Virus record (IMG/VR): IMGVR_UViG_3300033463_004542
Location: 1 to 64,000 of that record
Strand: one strand, 5' to 3'
DNA from: a virus
Lineage: Duplodnaviria > Caudoviricetes
DNA: 64,000 nt
Part shown: piece by piece, positions 8,724 to 61,804 of the stretch
Position numbering within the stretch: the stretch's first letter is position 1
Layout: each line of letters starts with the position of its first letter
Translations under genes and position numbers: made by a program
Notes under the pieces: generated by a model
Told to the model about the DNA's origin: nothing
The model's input: the letters and a program-made list of their open reading frames with translations, nothing else
Database searches by the model: none

Positions 8724-9331
8724 TTCAGATATTGAGCCAAATCATTCTTTATTGTTAAATCTTTGCGTTTGCGTTTCCAAGAAATACTGCCTTCTCGGTT
8801 TGACCTGTACACATATAGAGGCATATTCAATTTGTATGTAGAATGAGGTATTGCTCGTAATTGTGATTGAAATGGAATATCAGTATAGCAGTCCCAACTT
8901 TCGTCAAAAAACGGAACTATCTCTCGTCTATATACAGCCTTCCATATTGCCCGGGCATTCGGATGTATTATTACTTGATTTCTATCGAAATCTACCCAAT
9001 CAAACATTATTTCGTCGGCCAATTCTTTGTCGATAGCGTCAATAAGAACATCGATATAATTCATCATTATCATATCGTCGCTATCAATGAAGCCAGTATA
9101 TTTTCCTGTGGCTCGCCTTATGCCTTCATTCCATGAGGCACTTGCTCCTTTATGTTCATTATGAATGATATTGAATTCAGTAAACTCATCAAACCGAGTT
9201 TCGTTACAACCATCATCAACAAGAATAACTTCGACTTCATCTGTCTTCTGAAGCCGAAGTTCTTTCAGTAATTTGATAGTATATTCGTAGGTGTTGTAAT
9301 ATGGAATTATAATTGAAAGTTTAATCATCAT
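8720..9331 (-). CDS. Glycosyltransferase family 2
   Basis: LSIIIPYYN, VDDG, FIDSDD. Confidence 0.9.
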   Translation of the reverse strand: MMIKLSIIIPYYNTYEYTIKLLKELRLQKTDEVEVILVDDGCNETRFDEFTEFNIIHNEHKGASASWNEGIRRATGKYTGFIDSDDMIMMNYIDVLIDAIDKELADEIMFDWVDFDRNQVIIHPNARAIWKAVYRREIVPFFDESWDCYTDIPFQSQLRAIPHSTYKLNMPLYVYRSNREGSISWKRKRKDLTIKNDLAQYLK

Positions 9332-10286
9332 GCTCCTTTATCGGATATGCAGGCAATTCTGAAGGACTTGACAATACAAAATGATTGGTATCATAATCAT
9401 ATTCATATCCGATGTGCATACCTTCAATCTTATCTACTATTTCTACTACAGAACGCCTGCCAAGATTTCTTACACGAAGAAATGATTCTTCATAATTAAC
9501 TATATCTTTGACAGTGTTAATCTGTGCTCTCTTGAGACAATTATATGTCCTTACAGAAAAATCAAGGTCTTCGATAGGTGTATCCAAGGTAGGGTGAGTT
9601 ATCTCAAATGGAGGTTCGGGCTGTTCTCCCGATGACATATTCTGGAGGCTCACAATATACATTCTAAGTTGGTCGTTTTCGGCCTTGAGTTCCTCTAACT
9701 TCGGTCTACTAGCGATAATCTGTATGAGTCCTCGCTTAGTTTTTCTTCCGGCCTTATACTCTATCTGACGAATTCTTTCGCGTGTTAGGCCTATTCTGTT
9801 ACTCGTAGCATCAAGTGTCAACCCATCACGATATCTATAATGAACTACTAACTGTTCTCTATCTGTAAGCTGAGTAGTAAACACTGAATAGAAATCTACA
9901 GGCGAGATACTACGATAGTCCATATCAAGTTCTCTAAGAGGATATTCTTCGTAGTCATTGATAGCATTAGTCCCACCATTGTATCCCTGAATTGCAGAAA
10001 TTATGAAATTGTATGGGAATATATCTTCTATTGATATCGGCTTATCAATCATGAGTCTAGCCGTTACAATATGAGAACAAATCTTGTCAAAACTAGCATG
10101 AAATACTTTCTCAAGAAGTTTCTGTCTCTTCGGGTCAGGTTCAGACTTTAATGTGAGCCAGTTATTAAGAGTAGCAGAAGAAACACCTAAAAGGGCTTCT
10201 AAATCCTTGTGAGTGAGATTATTTGTTTCACAATACAACTTGAGGTTAGTGGCTAAAGTAACTTTCTTATCTTCTGATTTATACAT
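9321..10286 (-). CDS. XRE HTH - sigma70 region 4 - RNA polymerase alpha-CTD fusion protein
   Basis: N-terminal LTHKDLEALLGVSSATLNNW (XRE); central LTDREQLVVHYRY..TLD..IGLTRERIRQIEYKA (sigma4); C-terminal PIEDLDFSVRTYNCLKRAQINTVKD..VRNLGRRS (alphaCTD). Confidence 0.88.
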   Translation of the reverse strand: MYKSEDKKVTLATNLKLYCETNNLTHKDLEALLGVSSATLNNWLTLKSEPDPKRQKLLEKVFHASFDKICSHIVTARLMIDKPISIEDIFPYNFIISAIQGYNGGTNAINDYEEYPLRELDMDYRSISPVDFYSVFTTQLTDREQLVVHYRYRDGLTLDATSNRIGLTRERIRQIEYKAGRKTKRGLIQIIASRPKLEELKAENDQLRMYIVSLQNMSSGEQPEPPFEITHPTLDTPIEDLDFSVRTYNCLKRAQINTVKDIVNYEESFLRVRNLGRRSVVEIVDKIEGMHIGYEYDYDTNHFVLSSPSELPAYPIKEHDD

Positions 10287-10342
10287 CGTTATTTCCTCCT
10301 ATTGGTTTATTGATGTCTTATCTATTATAACGATTTGTATTC

Positions 10343-10510
10343 TTAATCTTTTACTTCTGTAATGCTCCAACATTTACAATGCTTGATAACAAGGTTTTTA
10401 ATTTCTTCATCATTCATGCCTTGAATTAGTTTCATCTCTTCGTAACTACCGGCACAGGTTTCTAATGCCTTTCGAGCATTTTCTATATCTATATTGATTT
10501 TAACTATCAT
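10343..10510 (-). CDS. Hypothetical protein (55 aa, below ORF-track cutoff)
   Basis: MIVKINIDIENARKALETC...; ATGA overlap with upstream gene. Confidence 0.55.
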   Translation of the reverse strand: MIVKINIDIENARKALETCAGSYEEMKLIQGMNDEEIKNLVIKHCKCWSITEVKD

Positions 10511-10728
10511 CTTTGCCACCAATGCTTCTTTGTTACTGCCTTTTTGGCTTCCATCATCTTCCGGTTCATTTCTTCGGCAGCGAACTTCCGGCTGTAATAT
10601 TCCATATTTTTGAGGATATCATCTAACTCATCAGAAGTTAAACCAGCCTGTTGTCTTAATGTAACATAGCTAGTTATCCCGGAGTTTAATAATTGACAAA
10701 CTGTATCAAACTGAAATTTACTAGGCAT
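10507..10728 (-). CDS. Hypothetical protein
   Basis: 73-aa ORF in operon. Confidence 0.55.
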   Translation of the reverse strand: MPSKFQFDTVCQLLNSGITSYVTLRQQAGLTSDELDDILKNMEYYSRKFAAEEMNRKMMEAKKAVTKKHWWQR

Positions 10729-10930
10729 TATCTACATTTTCTCTTTCAGTAATGTTTTCTACTTTACTCTTTCCTGGATTATCCATATGATTACCACAGC
10801 TCGGACAATATTCAGAAAATACAAACTGATGTAAATTATTCATTAATGGTCCTTGGGCACAGTTAGAACATACTACCCAACTTACACTACCATTTCCAAC
10901 TATAATAGGATGTGAGACCCAACTTGCCAT
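10721..10930 (-). CDS. Small zinc-ribbon protein
   Basis: W...CSNC...YCPSCG; similar to 2737-2925; GGAGG RBS. Confidence 0.65.
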   Translation of the reverse strand: MASWVSHPIIVGNGSVSWVVCSNCAQGPLMNNLHQFVFSEYCPSCGNHMDNPGKSKVENITERENVDNA

Positions 10931-12288: not shown

Positions 12289-13002
12289 TTAAAACTCCTT
12301 TATACTATTATATAACATTTCATACTTATCATTAACCCAGTCACTATGAAAATGCCCAAAATACCATTTATTGAAATCTAACTTATCTGCAATGGTCTGC
12401 AGCCATTCCTCTGTACTTTTATCTACAGTAGATTGGTCGATAAAAGGTAAAAACAGATGTAGGGGTTCTGTTGAAATAGGACAAGTGTGAGATAATACTG
12501 TGTCGACTTTCCAACCCACATTATCTAATTGCTTTTCTACATATGACTTAATATCATCATTGGGTTGTTCACTCTCAAACCAAGCAGAACCTCTGGAAAG
12601 TCTATAGTACTTATCTACAGAATATGCTCCACCAATTACAAGTGTTTTATACCCATTAAAATCATAGAACTCACCATCTTTAGCAAATATCTGATTCGGG
12701 TATTTGGGATTTACATAAGCAGATGCTCCAAATTGTTCTTGTAATTCATACCCCGAAACATTATAAGGTCTTTCTTCGTGATTACCATGTATACAGAAAA
12801 ATGTCAGAGGAATTTCAGATACAAATTTCTTTAACTTCTTAGCCCGTTTATCATCATGTCCATTGTGTACAAAATAGTTTAATCCAGCATCACCTAAAAC
12901 AATCATAACATCATCAAGAGTTGTTTGCATTTTATCTGCAAACTCTGCTATGTGATTAAAATTTCCGTGAGTATCTCCTGTGATATAAATCATTTTTTTC
13001 AT
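12289..13002 (-). CDS. Calcineurin-like metallophosphoesterase
   Basis: GDTHG, LGD, GNHE, SHTCP, FGHFH motifs; likely start at 13002 or 12993 rather than 13068. Confidence 0.9.
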   Translation of the reverse strand: MKKMIYITGDTHGNFNHIAEFADKMQTTLDDVMIVLGDAGLNYFVHNGHDDKRAKKLKKFVSEIPLTFFCIHGNHEERPYNVSGYELQEQFGASAYVNPKYPNQIFAKDGEFYDFNGYKTLVIGGAYSVDKYYRLSRGSAWFESEQPNDDIKSYVEKQLDNVGWKVDTVLSHTCPISTEPLHLFLPFIDQSTVDKSTEEWLQTIADKLDFNKWYFGHFHSDWVNDKYEMLYNSIKEF

Positions 13003-13319
13003 ATCCTTTAAAGAAACGGTGTTAGGGTTAAAGAGCATTGGGCACATATCGGCTTGCCAGTTCACCAAAGACTGTTACTACTTTGGTCAATGCTCGTGTC
13101 AGGAGCCTACTTTCCTCAGCAAGGCTCAACCTTGCTTGTTGGGTTCATTATCCCAAGTTCCCTCTGTCTGATTTATATACCGCAAGTATGAGGTGGGTGG
13201 GCAGTTGCAACTCCCCAGTGCGGTTGTTAATGCCTTTTGAGGCGCATCCTCGGGAGCTACCCGATTTCCTCACTCCGTTTGCAGATTCGAACTGCGTACA
13301 CGCCTTTACGGAGATATAA

Positions 13320-24387: not shown

Positions 24388-24492
24388 GATTAAATCTCCT
24401 TTACATAGATTTTATTAAATCATTATGATTCATAAAAGGTTTATTAAAATCGTTATATAATATAATTGTATAAGAATACAAGGAGGCCTAAT

Positions 24493-25080
24493 ATGAAAAT
24501 TCCCAAGATTGTTATAACAGGAGGCCCATGTGCCGGAAAGTCGTCTGTTATGCCGAGGTTACAAGAAGACCTAGAAAAGATGGGATACAAAGTTTTAATT
24601 GTATCAGAATCTGCTACAGACTTTTTAACACATGGAGCAAAATATAGCGACCCAAAGTTCCAACGATACTTGATAGAGTACCAACTTGAAAGAGAAAGAA
24701 TCTACGAAGATTTTGCAAGACAACAGACAGATAAAACAATAATGTTTCTAGACCGCGGATGTCTTGACTGCAAGGCGTATATGTCAGAAGATGAATGGTC
24801 CGAAGTCCTCAAGGAACTTCATACTAATGAAATAGAAGTTAGAGATAGTTATTATGCAGTATTCCATCTGATGTCTACGGCTAGAAATAAAGATTTAATC
24901 TATACTCAAGAAAATAATGCGGCAAGATTTGAATCAAGCGAAGAAGCCGCTATAGCCGCAGATGATGCAGTATATGATGTATGGGCTTCACATCCTAGGA
25001 GGGTTGTTATAGACAATTATCCTGACTTTGAGGATAAGGTCAGAAAGTTAATAGAAGAGATACTTAATATACTTGAGTAA
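24493..25080 (+). CDS. AAA_28 / NadR-Ttd14-like P-loop protein
   Basis: IVITGGPCAGKSS Walker A, ESAT, DRG..D, NAARFES; AGGAGG RBS before ATG at 24493. Confidence 0.85.
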   Translation: MKIPKIVITGGPCAGKSSVMPRLQEDLEKMGYKVLIVSESATDFLTHGAKYSDPKFQRYLIEYQLERERIYEDFARQQTDKTIMFLDRGCLDCKAYMSEDEWSEVLKELHTNEIEVRDSYYAVFHLMSTARNKDLIYTQENNAARFESSEEAAIAADDAVYDVWASHPRRVVIDNYPDFEDKVRKLIEEILNILE

Positions 25081-28673: not shown

Positions 28674-30137
28674 TCAGAATGCGCCAAGAACCTTACCAGA
28701 TACTACCGTGGCGGGATTGACGATTTTGGTTGCATACATTGTTGCGAAGCCGCTCTGTACAGATGCATTAGCAAGGCCGATGTCATCTGTCTTCATCATA
28801 GGCATATACTCGCCGTAAAGAGCGCTCGAACGACGGATGTCGTTGGACTTGCAGCACATAACCCAAGTATTAGGGTCATAGTAAGGGTCAACGTAGATTG
28901 TGTACTGGTCAAGAGTACCGAGCTTATAAGGACCAACCGGGTCTTCAGCAGAAGCTGCTACGAAACCAGGAAGTCTAGAAATAAGTGAAGCAACCTTTGT
29001 ACCAACGATAAGTCTGTTCGGCCTTGCGAGGTTCGTTGCCTGATATACGCTGTTAGCAGCATCATCAAGCTTGAACTTGAAGAGGTTCAGGAAGTCCGAA
29101 GGCATAACTGCACCATTGAATGCAAGAGATGCATCCCAGTTATACTGAGGAGCATATGTTGCTGCTGCAGCGAGCTGGTTGAAGCAATAGCTGTTGATTT
29201 CAGCTGTGAGTTCGGAGAATGCAGCCTCCTTGGAAATCTCACCAATGTTTGCACCGTACTCCTGCTGAGCTGCGAATGCAGAATAGATGGACCAATAAGA
29301 TGCGATTTCATGAGCCTCAGCAATCATGTTAATCTCATCGAGCTTGAGATAACCCTTAGCCATCTTTGCGCCATAGTTACCAGCTGCATCGGGACCAACT
29401 GTCTCGTTGTCATACTCATAAGTAGCAAGAACTTCGTCACCTGTGAGTGTTGTGATAACGCCTGTAGCATAATTGATTGAACCAGCAGAAGCACCGCCGC
29501 CTACAGGAATGATGTCACCAGCACCATCGTCAACATACTTTGTTGTTGTGCCGCCTGTCGTAACTGCAAAGGAAACAGAACCAGGAAGGATAGGTGTATA
29601 AGCGAGTGTGCCGTTTGCAACTGTCTCGTTCTTTACAACTCTACCTGTGAAGTTCGGGTCATAACCCTGACGGTTAACAAATGCAGAAGAAAGGATATCG
29701 CCTGCCTTTGTCTCGCCCTTTGTGTTCTCTGCGATGAACTTGAAGTAAGGAATAATCTGCTGTCTTGACTTCATTGCAACAGAACCAAATACATCAAGAA
29801 CGAGGAGCTTCTGAACGAACATCGGAAGAAGCTCGACGAAATCAGGCTTTGCCATGATATTAGAAGTATTTGTAGCTGCTGTGATTGCAGACATCTTACG
29901 TGTGTTAGCGATAAGCTGGTTAGCAAAGATTCTCTGCTCAGGAGTGAGGTTAAGAGAAGCTTCTACAGACTGCCTTGCAATAGGGCGAGCCTTTCTGGAA
30001 CGACCAGCTGCTGTAATAGAAGTACCAGCATTGATGCTACGAGGTGCAGAATAACCAATACGAGAAGGTCTGCTCATTCTGCTAGAAGCAGTAATGCTAG
30101 AAGGAGTAACTCTACGAGTTGTCTTTTTAATAGCCAT
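28674..30137 (-). CDS. Major capsid protein (T4 gp23-like)
   Basis: LLVLDVFGSVAM, ELTAEIN, GTLDQYTIYVDPY, YGEYMP, GFATMYA patterns; follows the protease gene. Confidence 0.9.
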   Translation of the reverse strand: MAIKKTTRRVTPSSITASSRMSRPSRIGYSAPRSINAGTSITAAGRSRKARPIARQSVEASLNLTPEQRIFANQLIANTRKMSAITAATNTSNIMAKPDFVELLPMFVQKLLVLDVFGSVAMKSRQQIIPYFKFIAENTKGETKAGDILSSAFVNRQGYDPNFTGRVVKNETVANGTLAYTPILPGSVSFAVTTGGTTTKYVDDGAGDIIPVGGGASAGSINYATGVITTLTGDEVLATYEYDNETVGPDAAGNYGAKMAKGYLKLDEINMIAEAHEIASYWSIYSAFAAQQEYGANIGEISKEAAFSELTAEINSYCFNQLAAAATYAPQYNWDASLAFNGAVMPSDFLNLFKFKLDDAANSVYQATNLARPNRLIVGTKVASLISRLPGFVAASAEDPVGPYKLGTLDQYTIYVDPYYDPNTWVMCCKSNDIRRSSALYGEYMPMMKTDDIGLANASVQSGFATMYATKIVNPATVVSGKVLGAF

Positions 30138-30176
30138 TTTTGTCTCCTAGTGTTTAATATCTTTAATATAGTTAAG

Positions 30177-31640
30177 TTACAGTACTGCTAAATTGTCACT
30201 GCCGTCATCAATATCGTCAACATCTACGGGAAGAATTGCTTCTTCATAAGACGGATTAACTCCGATGTTAGATGTATTCATTGCTCCTTGGATTAAGTTT
30301 TCCAATTCACGAACGGAAGTTGACGCAGTTACTGTTAAGCCAGATGCTTGAATTCCTATCGCATTAGCATAAATATTAGCATACGCTTGCTGATATTCAA
30401 GTAATGCACTCTCCATAGCCTGAACTCTGTCCTCGAGGGACTCAAGTTCTCTATTAGAAGCAGATATCTCAGCCTTAAGATTTCTCAATTGCTCACCACG
30501 GTTTGATGCTTCTTTCGTCGCATTCGTACTTGCAACAACAGTTTTGTTAAGTTCGGAACGCAAGTCTGCAATAGCAGCATCTTTTGCTTGGATATCAGAT
30601 GAGGAACTCTCAATCTTCTGTCTATAAATAAGGTTGTTTTTACGAGCCGATTCTAATTCTTTCATTATTTCAGAATTCTTATTGTTGATAGCTCGTAATT
30701 CGTTCTCAAGTTGCTTGTTAGCAACGACTAACTTCTTTCTTGATTTGTTAGATTCATTAATCTTTGATTGCATTAATTTTTCTTGACTTGCTGTTATTCT
30801 TTCGATAGTTTTTAATCTTCTTGTATATTTTGTTTTTGTTGCTAATAAATCGGAATGTAACTTCTTATTTGCTTTTACTTCCTCAAGATAAAGTTCAGTC
30901 AGGGCTCTGAGTTTCTTGCCCATTATTTCTTCTTTATCTTCATCAGAACAGTCAGGGCATTCATCATCGGCTACTCCGATATCTGCTTTACGAGCCTCAA
31001 GTTTCTTGTACTGTTCAGAATCAGGATTAAACTGTTCCTGCATTGCTTCAATTGTATTGATATTAGTGATATCACTAATATTCTTTTCAATTGCAGCACA
31101 TACTCTCTTATATTTAACCTGGTCGTCAAGATTCTTTGATGCAGCTATCTGCTGGAACTCAGGAATTGCGTCTACATAAGCAGGGAACGCAACTAAATCA
31201 AAACCTCTAAATACAAATGTTTCGGGGTCTACATTTCCTTCGGAATCTACATCACCTGCGCCACGAATCGAGATGCCCCACTGCACGCCTGCGTCAATAA
31301 ATGATTTAACTATACGACCTACAGGAGTATCAATAAGGTCAAATGTACCATAAATCTCATCGTTATCTGTGATTTCCATTGATGTCATGACAATACAAGC
31401 ATCTTTGAAGTCTTGACATCCAGGGTCTTCAGGGTGACCTAAGAATCCGATGTAGTAGCCATGTTCGATAGCATCCTTGTACTCATCGGAAGCAAGTAAA
31501 TGTTCAAATAACTCACGATTTAATTTCATATCGTTGTTATTGAATACTGCTGCGTCACAGCACTTTCCGGTGAAAGTTCCGATAATTGAGGATTTCTTCG
31601 GCTCTTCTATAGCTGATGTTATTTTAGCTTTATTAGCCAT
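30177..31640 (-). CDS. Prohead protease (T4 gp21-like) fused to coiled-coil scaffold
   Basis: GFLGHP, TPVGRIV, GISIRGAG, FDLVAFPA motifs; long C-terminal coiled coil. Confidence 0.88.
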   Translation of the reverse strand: MANKAKITSAIEEPKKSSIIGTFTGKCCDAAVFNNNDMKLNRELFEHLLASDEYKDAIEHGYYIGFLGHPEDPGCQDFKDACIVMTSMEITDNDEIYGTFDLIDTPVGRIVKSFIDAGVQWGISIRGAGDVDSEGNVDPETFVFRGFDLVAFPAYVDAIPEFQQIAASKNLDDQVKYKRVCAAIEKNISDITNINTIEAMQEQFNPDSEQYKKLEARKADIGVADDECPDCSDEDKEEIMGKKLRALTELYLEEVKANKKLHSDLLATKTKYTRRLKTIERITASQEKLMQSKINESNKSRKKLVVANKQLENELRAINNKNSEIMKELESARKNNLIYRQKIESSSSDIQAKDAAIADLRSELNKTVVASTNATKEASNRGEQLRNLKAEISASNRELESLEDRVQAMESALLEYQQAYANIYANAIGIQASGLTVTASTSVRELENLIQGAMNTSNIGVNPSYEEAILPVDVDDIDDGSDNLAVL

Positions 31641-58898: not shown

Positions 58899-61804
58899 TA
58901 GATTGTTGACCCTCCATTGAAGATATGATACGAACCAGGTTCCCAACCATCAATACTGTCTACGCCCATTGTCATATTTTCAGAATTTACTATGTCTGTT
59001 ATTGAATCAAATGCTATTGTTCCTGACGAAGTTACATCTGTTGTGACATCATATGTTCCTGTATATACTGTAAAGTTAGTAGCAATAACGACCCACTGTG
59101 CATTCTGCACTATATAAGCGGTTGTAAACGAACCTGTTACTTTAAGAGGCTTTGATAAGCACCTATTAGGATAAATCAATTCAGAACCTTGAGGCAAGTT
59201 GAATGTTCCTCCGATTATTGACCTACCTGTCGTTACATTAGTTGCTGTAGAACCATTTGAAACATAAATGCTACACTCAATTATGTCACCGTTTCCTCCA
59301 AGAGTTATGCTCCTGAGTGCTGCAGAATAATGGTTATCATTCGGATTATCTTCATCCCAGAATGCAATATCTTCTACTGTCATTGGTGCATTAGGCTGTG
59401 AAACTTCCATTCCATTTACAAGGAGGTCCGGGTCTGTTTCGTTGAACCTATCGTACCATAATGTAATATCTTGTAATCCAGTGAATGATGTAGCCCTATA
59501 ATGGTTAACATCACAAACCCTAATATAGTTGAAAATATTTGCATCATAATATATACAACTTCTAACTATATTTATTACAGGTGTGCCGGATATGTTACTA
59601 TCAATCTTAATCTTCTCACAATCAATAATATTGATTATTGTTTTAGCATTTGCATTACCCAAGATATGTAATGTAACGGCTGTTCCGAATCTTGAATCAA
59701 TATTGTAAATATTCACACTCGCCGGGTCATCGTCATCACCTAACTGAGGAAGTGTTATATAGACATTTATTACAGGAGTTGTACCACCAAGGTATGGAGT
59801 GAACGGGAACGCTACTCTGTTGTTTACATATTCATCAAGGTTAGATTGGATAGTAGGATAAGTAATATTACTTGCTAATGTAACATCTTCTCCTAATTGA
59901 TATGCTAATGTACCAGAACGAAGTAAAGAATAGTCAATCAATTTAAGTCGACCGGTCTCATCAAGAGTTACATATCCTGCGTCTGTATATGTAGAATCTG
60001 TATTGTAGAATCCACCTATCTGTGTTGTTGCTGCAAGAGGAATTCCACCTGTTACTAATATATAATCTGACCAAGTTCTAGGGCCTGTTCCAATTACTTT
60101 GTAGTACAGCGGAGTTATTTCAGTGTCTGAATCATTATGCCAAGATACCTCGAAGTAATCGGCATTTAATGTTCCTCTATATGTTGCAAAGTTGAATAAT
60201 GTTGTTGCATCTTCATTGAAAATCTTATCCCAATACTCAGGATTCCAATCGCCTGTAGTAGCTGTGTTACACTTGTACAGACCTCCGTTGTAGGCTGCAT
60301 AATCATTCACTCTATAATTTGTGCTTGTTTCGTAGAAATCTGCAAGATGCTTAAGGTCATTTACAGTAACACCTGGATTATCTCCAGCCCAAACTGATAC
60401 GGAAGTTTCACCTAATCTTACACCTGTAGGAAGTGATTGTGAATATCCAACATTTGATACTGTTCCAGGCAAGACCTTATACATTGTTGAAGGAGACGCT
60501 CCGTCATCTTCTGTAGTATTTGCAGTATAATCTTCTCTAACGAAGATATAATCTCCATTACTGTAATTTGCAGGAATTGTAGGCATTACATAATCTGAAT
60601 CTTTTGTATCTAACCAAAGGACCATGTTGCCTGCAGGCGACTGTTTAAGTCCACCTAACTTCTCTGCAAGATTTTTTATTACTTGTGTATATTCGTTATC
60701 AACAGTTCCGGCACTTCCCGAAAGATAATTTGCTTTAGGTAATTTAATATCTCTTAATCCGAAGTAAACATTATCACCAGCAGTATTCTTCATAGAATCA
60801 ATCTGCTGATGGGGAATTGCTAAGTGGACAAATCCGTCATTTGTTGTTAAGAATGTTGCTTGAGGAACTGCTTCATTAGGATTGATAGTGCTTATAGTAT
60901 TCTGAGGGTCTGCATCCCATACCATGAGGCTTCCTGTTGAATCACACCAAGTAGATTTATCGCTACTTCCTCCCTGACCGGAGAATGTATATAACATGTG
61001 AGGATTAAGATTTTTCTTTGATACGAAGTTATCATCAAGTACCTTAGAAATATCGTCAATCCTAGATGAATTGATATATGATACTTTATTCTTATTTTGA
61101 ACGATTGCCGCAGGATTGATTGTTCCATTGATGTAGATAAAATCTGCTAACTTGAGGTCTGCAGTTACTTGTGACCTATCTGTAGGACAATCAGAAGGTG
61201 TTCTAAAATCTTCTTTCTTTTCAACAACTAACTGAATTCCAATATATACATTATCCTCATTTTCAATCAACATTGAACCGGACATAGTGGCTTCTGTGCT
61301 ATAATAAGCCCTAATACCTACTACTAACTCACCAATGAGCGGCGGTTTATAATCTTTTGCTAATTGTGCATTTGCAAGAGCTAAATCGATAATCATTGGA
61401 GCAAGAGTCTGAACATAATGTCCATTGATTACTGCTCTACCAGGAGCTATCTGGAGGATACAAGATGCTGCATTAACAATAGTCCATTTAGATGAATCAA
61501 AAGGCTCGGGAGTTACTATCGGCTGTGTACAAACATATGTAACAGAATTGTATGTTACATAATCACCAATTGTATAAGTCTGTGTAGAATCGTATTCCGG
61601 TGCCTCCATTGAGGAAAGTAAACTAACAGCAAAATCGTTCATTCCATGTGTATAGGAAGGCCCCACTTCGTATTCTATCTGTGGGTCTGTTCCTACCATC
61701 TCTCTTGAACGAAGATTATATTCTGTAACTAATTGACCGCCTTTTGTTGAATTACTGAGCGGGAATATATTGGTTGTTGCTACATTAAATGTTTGGAAAT
61801 GCAT
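58898..61804 (-). CDS. Large virion structural protein with two CBM5/12-like modules
   Basis: IAPGRAVINGHY; YTIGDYVTYNSVTYVC and YRVNDYAAYNGGLYKC modules. Confidence 0.65.
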   Translation of the reverse strand: MHFQTFNVATTNIFPLSNSTKGGQLVTEYNLRSREMVGTDPQIEYEVGPSYTHGMNDFAVSLLSSMEAPEYDSTQTYTIGDYVTYNSVTYVCTQPIVTPEPFDSSKWTIVNAASCILQIAPGRAVINGHYVQTLAPMIIDLALANAQLAKDYKPPLIGELVVGIRAYYSTEATMSGSMLIENEDNVYIGIQLVVEKKEDFRTPSDCPTDRSQVTADLKLADFIYINGTINPAAIVQNKNKVSYINSSRIDDISKVLDDNFVSKKNLNPHMLYTFSGQGGSSDKSTWCDSTGSLMVWDADPQNTISTINPNEAVPQATFLTTNDGFVHLAIPHQQIDSMKNTAGDNVYFGLRDIKLPKANYLSGSAGTVDNEYTQVIKNLAEKLGGLKQSPAGNMVLWLDTKDSDYVMPTIPANYSNGDYIFVREDYTANTTEDDGASPSTMYKVLPGTVSNVGYSQSLPTGVRLGETSVSVWAGDNPGVTVNDLKHLADFYETSTNYRVNDYAAYNGGLYKCNTATTGDWNPEYWDKIFNEDATTLFNFATYRGTLNADYFEVSWHNDSDTEITPLYYKVIGTGPRTWSDYILVTGGIPLAATTQIGGFYNTDSTYTDAGYVTLDETGRLKLIDYSLLRSGTLAYQLGEDVTLASNITYPTIQSNLDEYVNNRVAFPFTPYLGGTTPVINVYITLPQLGDDDDPASVNIYNIDSRFGTAVTLHILGNANAKTIINIIDCEKIKIDSNISGTPVINIVRSCIYYDANIFNYIRVCDVNHYRATSFTGLQDITLWYDRFNETDPDLLVNGMEVSQPNAPMTVEDIAFWDEDNPNDNHYSAALRSITLGGNGDIIECSIYVSNGSTATNVTTGRSIIGGTFNLPQGSELIYPNRCLSKPLKVTGSFTTAYIVQNAQWVVIATNFTVYTGTYDVTTDVTSSGTIAFDSITDIVNSENMTMGVDSIDGWEPGSYHIFNGGSTI

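Follow-up and report, generated by a model that had tools for sequence, protein, structure and literature searches.

The stretch analyzed here, called the window, comprises the first 64 kb (64,000 nucleotides) of the 98,091-bp IMG/VR record IMGVR_UViG_3300033463_004542, whose completeness is estimated by CheckV at 58%. At positions 9321-10286 of its minus strand lies a gene, exactly one open reading frame (ORF), whose 321-aa product combines an XRE-type helix-turn-helix (HTH), region 4 of a sigma-70 factor (sigma-4) and the alpha subunit's C-terminal domain (alpha-CTD) from RNA polymerase (RNAP). This three-domain protein is best explained as an accessory transcription factor of the phage, presumably made early or mid infection, and its family probably interferes with host promoter recognition, a function which we read from sequence. 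Nearly all window ORFs of at least 100 aa are carried by the minus strand, G+C content is ~36% and a tRNA cluster is present; the head, protease and baseplate genes give weak matches to phage families, and a Phage_T4_gp13 gene is present at the loci of relatives. Among public runs the window sequence was found in DNA runs only, labelled bovine gut metagenome, and in no RNA run; the phage is a large rumen phage whose host is probably a Clostridia bacterium. The gene, its upstream signals and the parts of its product are as follows.

9321..10286, minus strand: complete ORF of 321 aa with TAA stop; full-length relatives in 36 clusters at 41-84% identity
10295..10300, minus strand: Shine-Dalgarno sequence AGGAGG, a strong ribosome-binding site, 8 nt before the ATG of the three-domain gene
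10326..10335, minus strand: promoter-like motif of class A, AATCGTTATA, ending 39 nt before the ATG
10068..10274, minus strand: XRE/Cro-C1-type HTH, residues 5-73 (Pfam HTH_3; VIA-align)
9912..10067, minus strand: family-specific middle region, residues 74-125, with conserved KICS and EDIFPYN motifs
9711..9911, minus strand: sigma-70 region 4 (4.1 and 4.2), residues 126-192 (Pfam Sigma70_r4; structure comparison)
9759-9785, minus strand: sigma-4 recognition helix TRERIRQIE, T168-E176 (alignment)
9639..9701, minus strand: short putative leucine zipper, residues 196-216, with a/d positions L197, L200, N204, L207, I211 and L214
9594..9638, minus strand: flexible linker, residues 217-231 (variable columns in alignment A1; predicted local distance difference test score, pLDDT, <50 at 223-230)
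9417..9593, minus strand: RNAP alpha-CTD, residues 232-290 (Pfam RNA_pol_A_CTD; structure comparison)
9324..9416, minus strand: family-specific C-terminal tail, residues 291-321 (family alignment; AlphaFold2 model)

All three domains scored above the curated Pfam cut-offs: HTH_3 over residues 15-68 with 34.5 bits (cut-off 23), Sigma70_r4 over residues 139-182 with 42.2 bits (cut-off 24.1) and RNA_pol_A_CTD over residues 231-288 with 71.8 bits (cut-off 23.8). The folds were confirmed in an AlphaFold2 model built on the 36 relatives (mean pLDDT 79.9), so the claim of the original prediction that three such domains share one polypeptide holds. There was no Pfam match in the 321-aa protein to Sigma70_r2, the region with which sigma factors bind core and recognize and melt the -10 element. 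NCBIfam sigma models match by their region 4 ends only, far below the whole-protein cut-offs, and rpoA models at their C-terminal ends only (positions ~224-313), with 47-65 bits against cut-offs of 228-523, which indicates that the protein is neither an alpha subunit nor a sigma factor. It thus belongs with XRE HTH, sigma-70 region 4 and alpha-CTD proteins, and not with whole sigma-70 factors or RpoA. The N-terminal domain is a five-helix HTH which VIA-align matches to XRE regulators (e.g. 3op9_A and 2r1j_L; Z ~9 over residues 5-73), while the middle region, after its two conserved motifs, continues into an acidic segment modelled with low confidence.

The sigma-4 part, which has the four-helix fold, was matched to sigma region 4 with a VIA-align Z of ~11 over residues 119-192. 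The nearest solved sigma-4 in a single-sequence search was region 4 of S. aureus SigA (4g8x), and with the family profile (alignment A1) Firmicute RpoA alpha-CTDs rank first (8i23, 3gfk, 7l7b), followed by primary sigma region 4 (1tty of T. maritima RpoD, 4g8x and 1tlh). TRERIRQIE is identical to the primary sigma helix and invariant in the 36 relatives, R171, R173, Q174 and E176 included, and most members of the wider sigma-4/alpha-CTD family retain it with little alteration. It is known that in primary sigma these residues (R584-E591 in E. coli numbering) read the -35 hexamer, and that this helix varies in sigma factors with a different specificity. Its invariance here therefore makes selection for reading -35-like DNA likely.

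In the AlphaFold2 model one continuous helix, residues 169-219, spans the end of sigma-4 and the putative zipper. The a/d positions of the zipper are conserved in the family in the pattern ENxxLRQYIxxL, and the Asn at the central a position (N204) is placed as in dimeric zippers. A leucine zipper was defined as at least 3-4 heptads with hydrophobic a/d positions together with self-association, and this one has only ~2.5 heptads; we infer that two chains dimerize through it. A coiled coil had been predicted between sigma-4 and alpha-CTD, and the modelled helix and the conserved a/d positions speak for it, its short length against it.

The alpha-CTD has the (HhH)2 fold and resembles B. subtilis 1z3e_B (VIA-align Z 10.4, root-mean-square deviation 2.0 A, 66 aligned, residues 230-304; by Foldseek, 1.1 A over 61 columns). 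SVRTYN (residues 244-249) and RNLG (residues 273-276), said in the original prediction to be intact, are indeed present, and the longer segments SVRTYNCLKR and RNLG(R/K)(R/K)S show no or almost no variation among the 36 relatives. The positions aligned to E. coli R265, N268, C269, N294, G296, K298 and S299 are kept, as are the acidic residues aligned to D259 and E261; the former are the DNA-binding and the latter the sigma-contact determinants of alpha. The domain is of the Firmicute RpoA type, and the nearest host-like copies come from RpoA of rumen Clostridiales. In a poorly resolved tree the phage alpha-CTDs form their own branch, apart from the sampled Clostridia rpoA, and with 65 columns this tree is too short to date the capture or to name the donor. 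In the C-terminal tail a beta hairpin is predicted (residues 294-297 and 302-305) in which Y294 is nearly invariant and F303 invariant.

A search of 5.8 billion proteins gave full-length relatives in 36 clusters, most without a name and with contigs reaching 207 kb in length, and more than 60 clusters of 200-300-aa proteins consisting of sigma-4 and alpha-CTD only (source names of relatives are automatic labels). In the wider-family proteins examined the recognition helix and the alpha-CTD motif are 69-102 residues apart, with a helical heptad-like spacer between them, and many two-domain forms retain the sigma-A tail KALRKLRHP. What precedes the sigma-4 part depends on the lineage: nothing, HTH_17/MerR, Cro/C1 HTH_26 or HTH_3, and there are 200-aa forms without any extra HTH. 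The complete N-terminal 135-residue module was found in its own family only, with 13 representatives at E<=1e-10 among 1.84 billion; ~10 of these align near full length and the weakest three are generic multi-HTH proteins that match by the HTH only. A 194-aa HTH_3 protein of relatives was considered as a paralogue of this module and rejected. Several ESM Atlas clusters of 55-222 members have these architectures and are labelled viral in almost all labelled cases. The sigma-4/alpha-CTD module is thus common in viral metagenomes and, as far as we found, uncharacterized: full-text searches of the literature returned no description or characterization of such a fusion, and the jumbo-phage transcription review of Iyer et al. 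speaks of minimal sigma factors and of gp33 orthologues but of no alpha-CTD fusion. The architecture is thus not rare. The sole cultured-phage relative found, and one tractable for experiments, is the 210-aa Goe8_c00050 (L105:1959-2591) in the left-end region of the Herelleviridae Bacillus phage vB_BmeM-Goe8, annotated as 'RNA polymerase subunit alpha', in which the alpha-CTD alone is recognizable (residues 147-203).

The promoters of these phages are of two single-box classes. Of the class A motif the window holds nine exact copies between 3711 and 26266, eight on the minus (coding) strand and one on the plus strand, just before the plus-strand ORF 24466-25080. A complete relative of 200,233 bp (G001), whose three-domain copy is 50% identical, has 21 exact copies, all on the coding strand. 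The motif is identical letter for letter across phages whose proteins are only ~50-70% identical; G is preferred directly before it and T 15 nt after its first base, and only ~45% of sites have T where -7 of a sigma-A -10 element would be expected. Many genes of the window's phage and of G001 have the class B motif, tAACCTTTwAT, in front of them, in the window (7831-61844) head, baseplate and fibre genes among others, and at 27 sites in the two genomes it lies 20-72 nt upstream of ORF starts. Both classes share a TTAT(A) core and differ in the upstream pentamer, AATCG in class A and AACCT in class B.

No conserved -35 or UP-like element accompanies class A or class B sites, and 33 class A sites show neither a UP-like excess of A/T at a constant distance nor an upstream element that is conserved. 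These -35-less promoters are conserved in relatives with a ~50% identical three-domain copy. Pairs of the type TTGACA-N16-18-TATAAT occur at chance level in the window's phage and show no excess or clustering in G001. We found no Pfam-detectable multisubunit or T7-type RNA polymerase in the phage, the T7-type model being used without a positive control. In a distant relative (L107) there is no class A motif, and its commonest 9-mer lies mostly inside genes.

The three-domain gene itself is preceded at a short distance by the class A motif in relatives L005, L103 and L106 as well, and by a sigma-A-like -35/-10 promoter instead in L001, L104 and L102; across six relatives no shared operator was found upstream of the gene, only the one or the other promoter. 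In most relatives the gene lies in a variable region and opens an array of small genes of the early type. The sigma-A-like promoter in three relatives fits early expression and self-limitation. Comparison of L001 with L104 gives a ratio of nonsynonymous to synonymous substitution rates (dN/dS) of 0.2, which indicates that the gene is under purifying selection. In a subset of genes an ATCAATA(A) element stands between the promoter motif and the Shine-Dalgarno sequence (window 10307-10314, minus strand; 70722 in the genome of the window's phage; 11147, 57467 and 119840 in G001; ~1283-1301 in L085; and the leaders of L001 and L104). It belongs to the leader of the three-domain gene in several relatives, occurs in two copies at the gene of the sigma-like protein described below, and may be a shared leader or operator element; genome-wide it shows no statistical enrichment.

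Beside the primase gene of G001 lies a 278-aa ORF (59153-59989; L085:1318-2154; alignment A4) that encodes a diverged sigma-like protein. It matched TIGR02937 (sigma-70 superfamily), in its region 2 part, with an E value of 2e-7 in a search of the G001 genome, and the same model matches 25 of 30 family members individually. A chance sigma-2 match, suggested by 12 bits to PF04542 and by no Pfam match of the whole protein, is overturned by these results. VIA-align of its model is dominated by a C-terminal helical hairpin, and Foldseek matches are individually insignificant, with many of the listed rows being sigma chains. The C-terminal part has no recognizable DNA-reading region 4. The gene follows the best host-type promoter of G001, TTGATT-17-TATAAT, and numerous large phage contigs (58 IMG/VR loci) encode relatives of the protein. 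The sigma-like protein is likely to be the factor that confers specificity for one of the single-box promoter classes or for both. It is absent from the 98-kb fragment which holds the window and which has no replication module.

A comparison with a further complete phage, G002 (IMGVR_UViG_3300028914_000060; 175,559 bp), separates the three-domain protein from these promoters. Its sigma-like protein is 69% identical to that of G001, and its 22 exact copies of the class A motif are confined to one strand; class B motifs number 18 on one strand and 5 on the other. In G002 there is no tblastn match to the three-domain protein, no alpha-CTD (with G001 as positive control) and no Sigma70_r4. Class A and B motifs are thus used without the three-domain protein, which indicates that it is accessory and dispensable for those promoters, that it is not a promoter-specificity subunit, and which argues against an obligatory split-sigma partner. 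In all, the sigma-like protein is encoded by five complete phages, G002 among them, in which the three-domain family profile finds no match and there is no Sigma70_r4 above threshold (one match, in G006, is below the cut-off), and no alpha-CTD was found in the three of them searched; instead of the joint occurrence expected of a split (two-subunit) sigma, the partner of G001 is found alone in these five. The suggestion in the original prediction that RNAP is redirected to class A/B promoters by the three-domain protein is therefore disfavored, and among the options for the protein that of a reader of the phage's own promoters falls away.

The promoter motifs, the sigma-like protein, a 73-aa protein and a Stealth-family gene are common to G002 and the window's phage, while tblastn found no match in G002 to the major head protein, head protease or metallophosphatase of the window (12289-13068 and 28674-31640 compared). 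This points to strong mosaicism between regulatory and structural modules. The 73-aa protein combines an HTH-like segment, SGxxxYVxIRQQxGLTxxELDDI, with a basic tail, KKKxWW. Its gene (window 10507-10728, minus strand; alignment A3) is located a short distance upstream of the three-domain gene in all relatives examined (47-92% identity) and is found in G002 too, a genome without the three-domain gene. A 594-aa protein encoded near it in G002 is not the SNF2 helicase of relatives. The same run of small genes upstream of the three-domain gene includes one for a 69-aa protein (window 10721-10930, minus strand) with two CxxC pairs and a weak match to an RPB9-type zinc ribbon (E 0.0016). In two relatives (L001:1496-3269 and L003:3419-4684) IS605-type OrfB/TnpB genes, one of them with a resolvase-type partner gene, are inserted upstream of the three-domain gene at a distance of a few kb, and nearby helicase genes bear intein or LAGLIDADG insertions. 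G001 also encodes a 324-aa protein (L087:1405-2379) with two XRE-type HTHs and a repetitive PAAEPKVE linker, adjoining a DUF932 gene, whose sub-threshold Sigma70_r4 match reflects its HTH only.

Any account of the three-domain protein has four facts to explain: the DNA-reading residues are kept in both polymerase-derived domains, the spacing between these is constrained, a putative zipper precedes a flexibly tethered alpha-CTD, and the phages' own promoters lack the elements concerned. We tentatively favor the explanation, drawn from sequence comparison, that the protein is a dimeric mimic which would occupy the -35/UP DNA of sigma-A-type promoters, shutting off host and early phage transcription and leaving the phage promoters unaffected. 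Each chain would bring three DNA-binding parts, i.e. a clade-specific XRE domain, a copy of primary-sigma region 4 and a copy of the alpha-CTD, a domain that binds A/T-rich UP DNA in the minor groove, and two chains would pair via the leucine zipper. Such a dimer would present sigma-4 and two tethered alpha-CTDs, that is, the holoenzyme's DNA contacts upstream of -30, and would settle on the -35/UP region of promoters of the sigma-A type, keeping the host holoenzyme away, both at host genes and at a few host-type early phage promoters, in some relatives including its own. The single-box phage promoters, having no -35 and being probably served by the phage sigma-like protein, would be unaffected, and the core enzyme would be left free for the sigma-like protein. 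That the protein mimics the upstream face of the holoenzyme had been proposed in the original prediction, and this is partly supported, since the primary-sigma-like helix, the Firmicute alpha-CTD determinants and the -35-less phage promoters all fit.

Several observations weigh against the mimic. The TTGACA hexamer is neither depleted nor enriched in the phage genomes (its count equals the Markov expectation), which means that the proposed -35 occupancy has left no genomic footprint. Isolated sigma-4 and alpha-CTD bind DNA weakly, and the model therefore relies on avidity from a zipper of ~2.5 heptads. The gene of the window's phage stands behind a class A motif and not behind a host-type promoter, and the three-domain family does not conserve the residue aligned to E. 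coli sigma-70 R603, which contacts alpha-CTD. The XRE domain and the family-specific middle region are left unexplained by the model, as are the differing sequence-specific HTHs of each lineage, which suggest targeting of particular sites.

The sigma-4 part could alternatively dock on RNAP itself, at the beta-flap tip in place of the resident sigma region 4, with the XRE domain and the alpha-CTD adding upstream contacts that boost or modulate the -35-less phage promoters; the protein would then be a non-essential co-activator, which we consider rather unlikely. Its regions 4.1 and 4.2 are close to those of primary sigma and the residues aligned to the flap-facing positions of sigma-70 are largely kept (E555, R562, F563 and K593-K597, and in most of the family L598, where the window's protein has T). 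The order XRE-linker-sigma-4 parallels that of sigma-3, the 3.2 linker and sigma-4, and several structural matches run from residue 85-102 into region 4. Docking would also suit phage promoters without a -35 and a sigma-like protein, in G001 and G002, without a recognizable region 4, and the variable N-terminal HTHs of the superfamily would fit lineage-specific promoter targeting. Precedents are T4 gp33, which occupies the flap, and the minimal sigma factors of T4-like jumbo phages (PMC7824862), as well as the LtrA-type late activators, which resemble sigma-70 region 4 (PMC3753634). However, G002, with motifs and sigma-like protein and without a homologue, alpha-CTD or sigma-4, shows that the three-domain protein cannot be an obligatory subunit. 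Flap binding alone, moreover, needs no invariant -35-reading helix, and the XRE recognition helix differs among relatives that have an identical class A motif.

An ordinary site-specific regulator of a few phage operons (e.g. its own gene, the small-gene array or the glycan cluster), with three DNA-binding modules and no RNAP mimicry, seems unlikely to us. XRE is the commonest phage repressor module, and the lineage-dependent N-terminal HTH is what operator specificity would predict; the TAA stop of the window gene lies inside the start region of the downstream family-2 glycosyltransferase gene, to which it is translationally coupled, and ATCAATA(A) recurs in the leaders of the three-domain and sigma-like genes. 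Such a regulator leaves unexplained why exactly the functional residues of the polymerase are kept in both domains while other parts of the superfamily diverge freely, and it does not account for the 200-aa forms, which have no extra HTH. Moreover, the phage genomes show no excess of -35-like hexamers paired in inverted or direct orientation, and no operator-like repeat shared among relatives was found. The free sigma-4 and alpha-CTD surfaces might also act as decoys that soak up host activators (Spx), anti-sigma-like inhibitors, or alpha-CTD-targeting enzymes or defence sensors. The accessory nature of the protein agrees with this, as does the tyrosine of SVRTYN, the Spx contact in B. subtilis, which the host-type alpha-CTD keeps, and the top structural matches are alpha-CTD/Spx complexes (1z3e and 3gfk). 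Nevertheless a decoy could do without DNA-contacting residues in the two domains and without limits on the spacing between them, no partner was identified, and this explanation appears very improbable.

Returning to the dimeric mimic, we see a reasonable chance that the protein represents a novel way of shutting off the host. Somewhat more doubtful is the extension of this idea to the whole superfamily, in which the sigma-4/coiled-coil/alpha-CTD module would be a widespread phage invention, a free dimeric copy of the holoenzyme's upstream face in competition with the host's enzyme over -35/UP DNA, or over the partners of the two domains. If true, this would define a new class of host shut-off factors made of copies of their target instead of its binders or modifiers, with lineage-specific HTHs tuning the site. 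It would further offer a minimal natural tool with which the interface of sigma-4, alpha-CTD and DNA could be studied, with a possible use as a portable repressor of sigma-A promoters in Firmicutes. Because the module is so abundant, judging by the ESM Atlas and two-domain clusters, one biochemical study would annotate a large block of phage dark matter.

Compared with known systems, the sigma-4 part shares with primary sigma region 4 (SigA/RpoD) the fold, a near-identical TRERIRQIE and the region 4.1 signature LTxRE...R(F/Y). In contrast to primary sigma, the phage protein has no region 2 or 3, and hence no promoter melting and no sigma function, its loop between helices 2 and 3 of sigma-4 is four residues shorter, and the RHPSR tail is replaced in the three-domain family by the helix that runs into the zipper. 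With RpoA it has in common the alpha-CTD fold, the DNA-binding and sigma-contact determinants and a flexible linker, here after a putative dimerizing element, but it has no alpha N-terminal domain of the RNA_pol_L/RNA_pol_A_bac kind and thus no assembly into core. B. subtilis SigO-RsoA is a two-subunit sigma factor, and here too sigma functions are on two polypeptides, with separate sigma-2-type (in relatives) and sigma-4-type genes; the phage sigma-like and three-domain proteins, however, are not co-inherited, as the complete phages with the former type alone indicate. The LtrA family, T4 gp33 and the minimal sigmas of jumbo phages are likewise small phage sigma-4-like or flap-binding HTH proteins acting on host RNAP (PMC3753634, PMC7824862). 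None of them has an alpha-CTD or an XRE domain, and the three-domain protein is dispensable in a sister phage with the same promoters.

The outcome that we propose for the three-domain protein is the same as that reached by other phage factors. In T4, AsiA acts on region 4 and ModA on alpha R265. To our knowledge, every characterized phage device that turns host RNAP away from -35/UP promoters binds or modifies sigma-4 or alpha-CTD. T4 AsiA/MotA with Alt/ModA, G1 gp67 and gp39 of the Thermus phage P23-45 disable host recognition of the -35 and/or UP element, upon which -35-independent phage promoters win (PMC2988021, PMC3694059, PMC3950348). The three-domain protein has no sequence similarity to any of these. 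AsiA, ModA, gp67 and gp39 bind or modify the sigma-4 or alpha-CTD of the host, whereas the three-domain protein consists of copies of both parts and would vie for what these bind, DNA or protein, which, if the proposed mechanism is true, would be a different solution to the problem of switching host RNAP.

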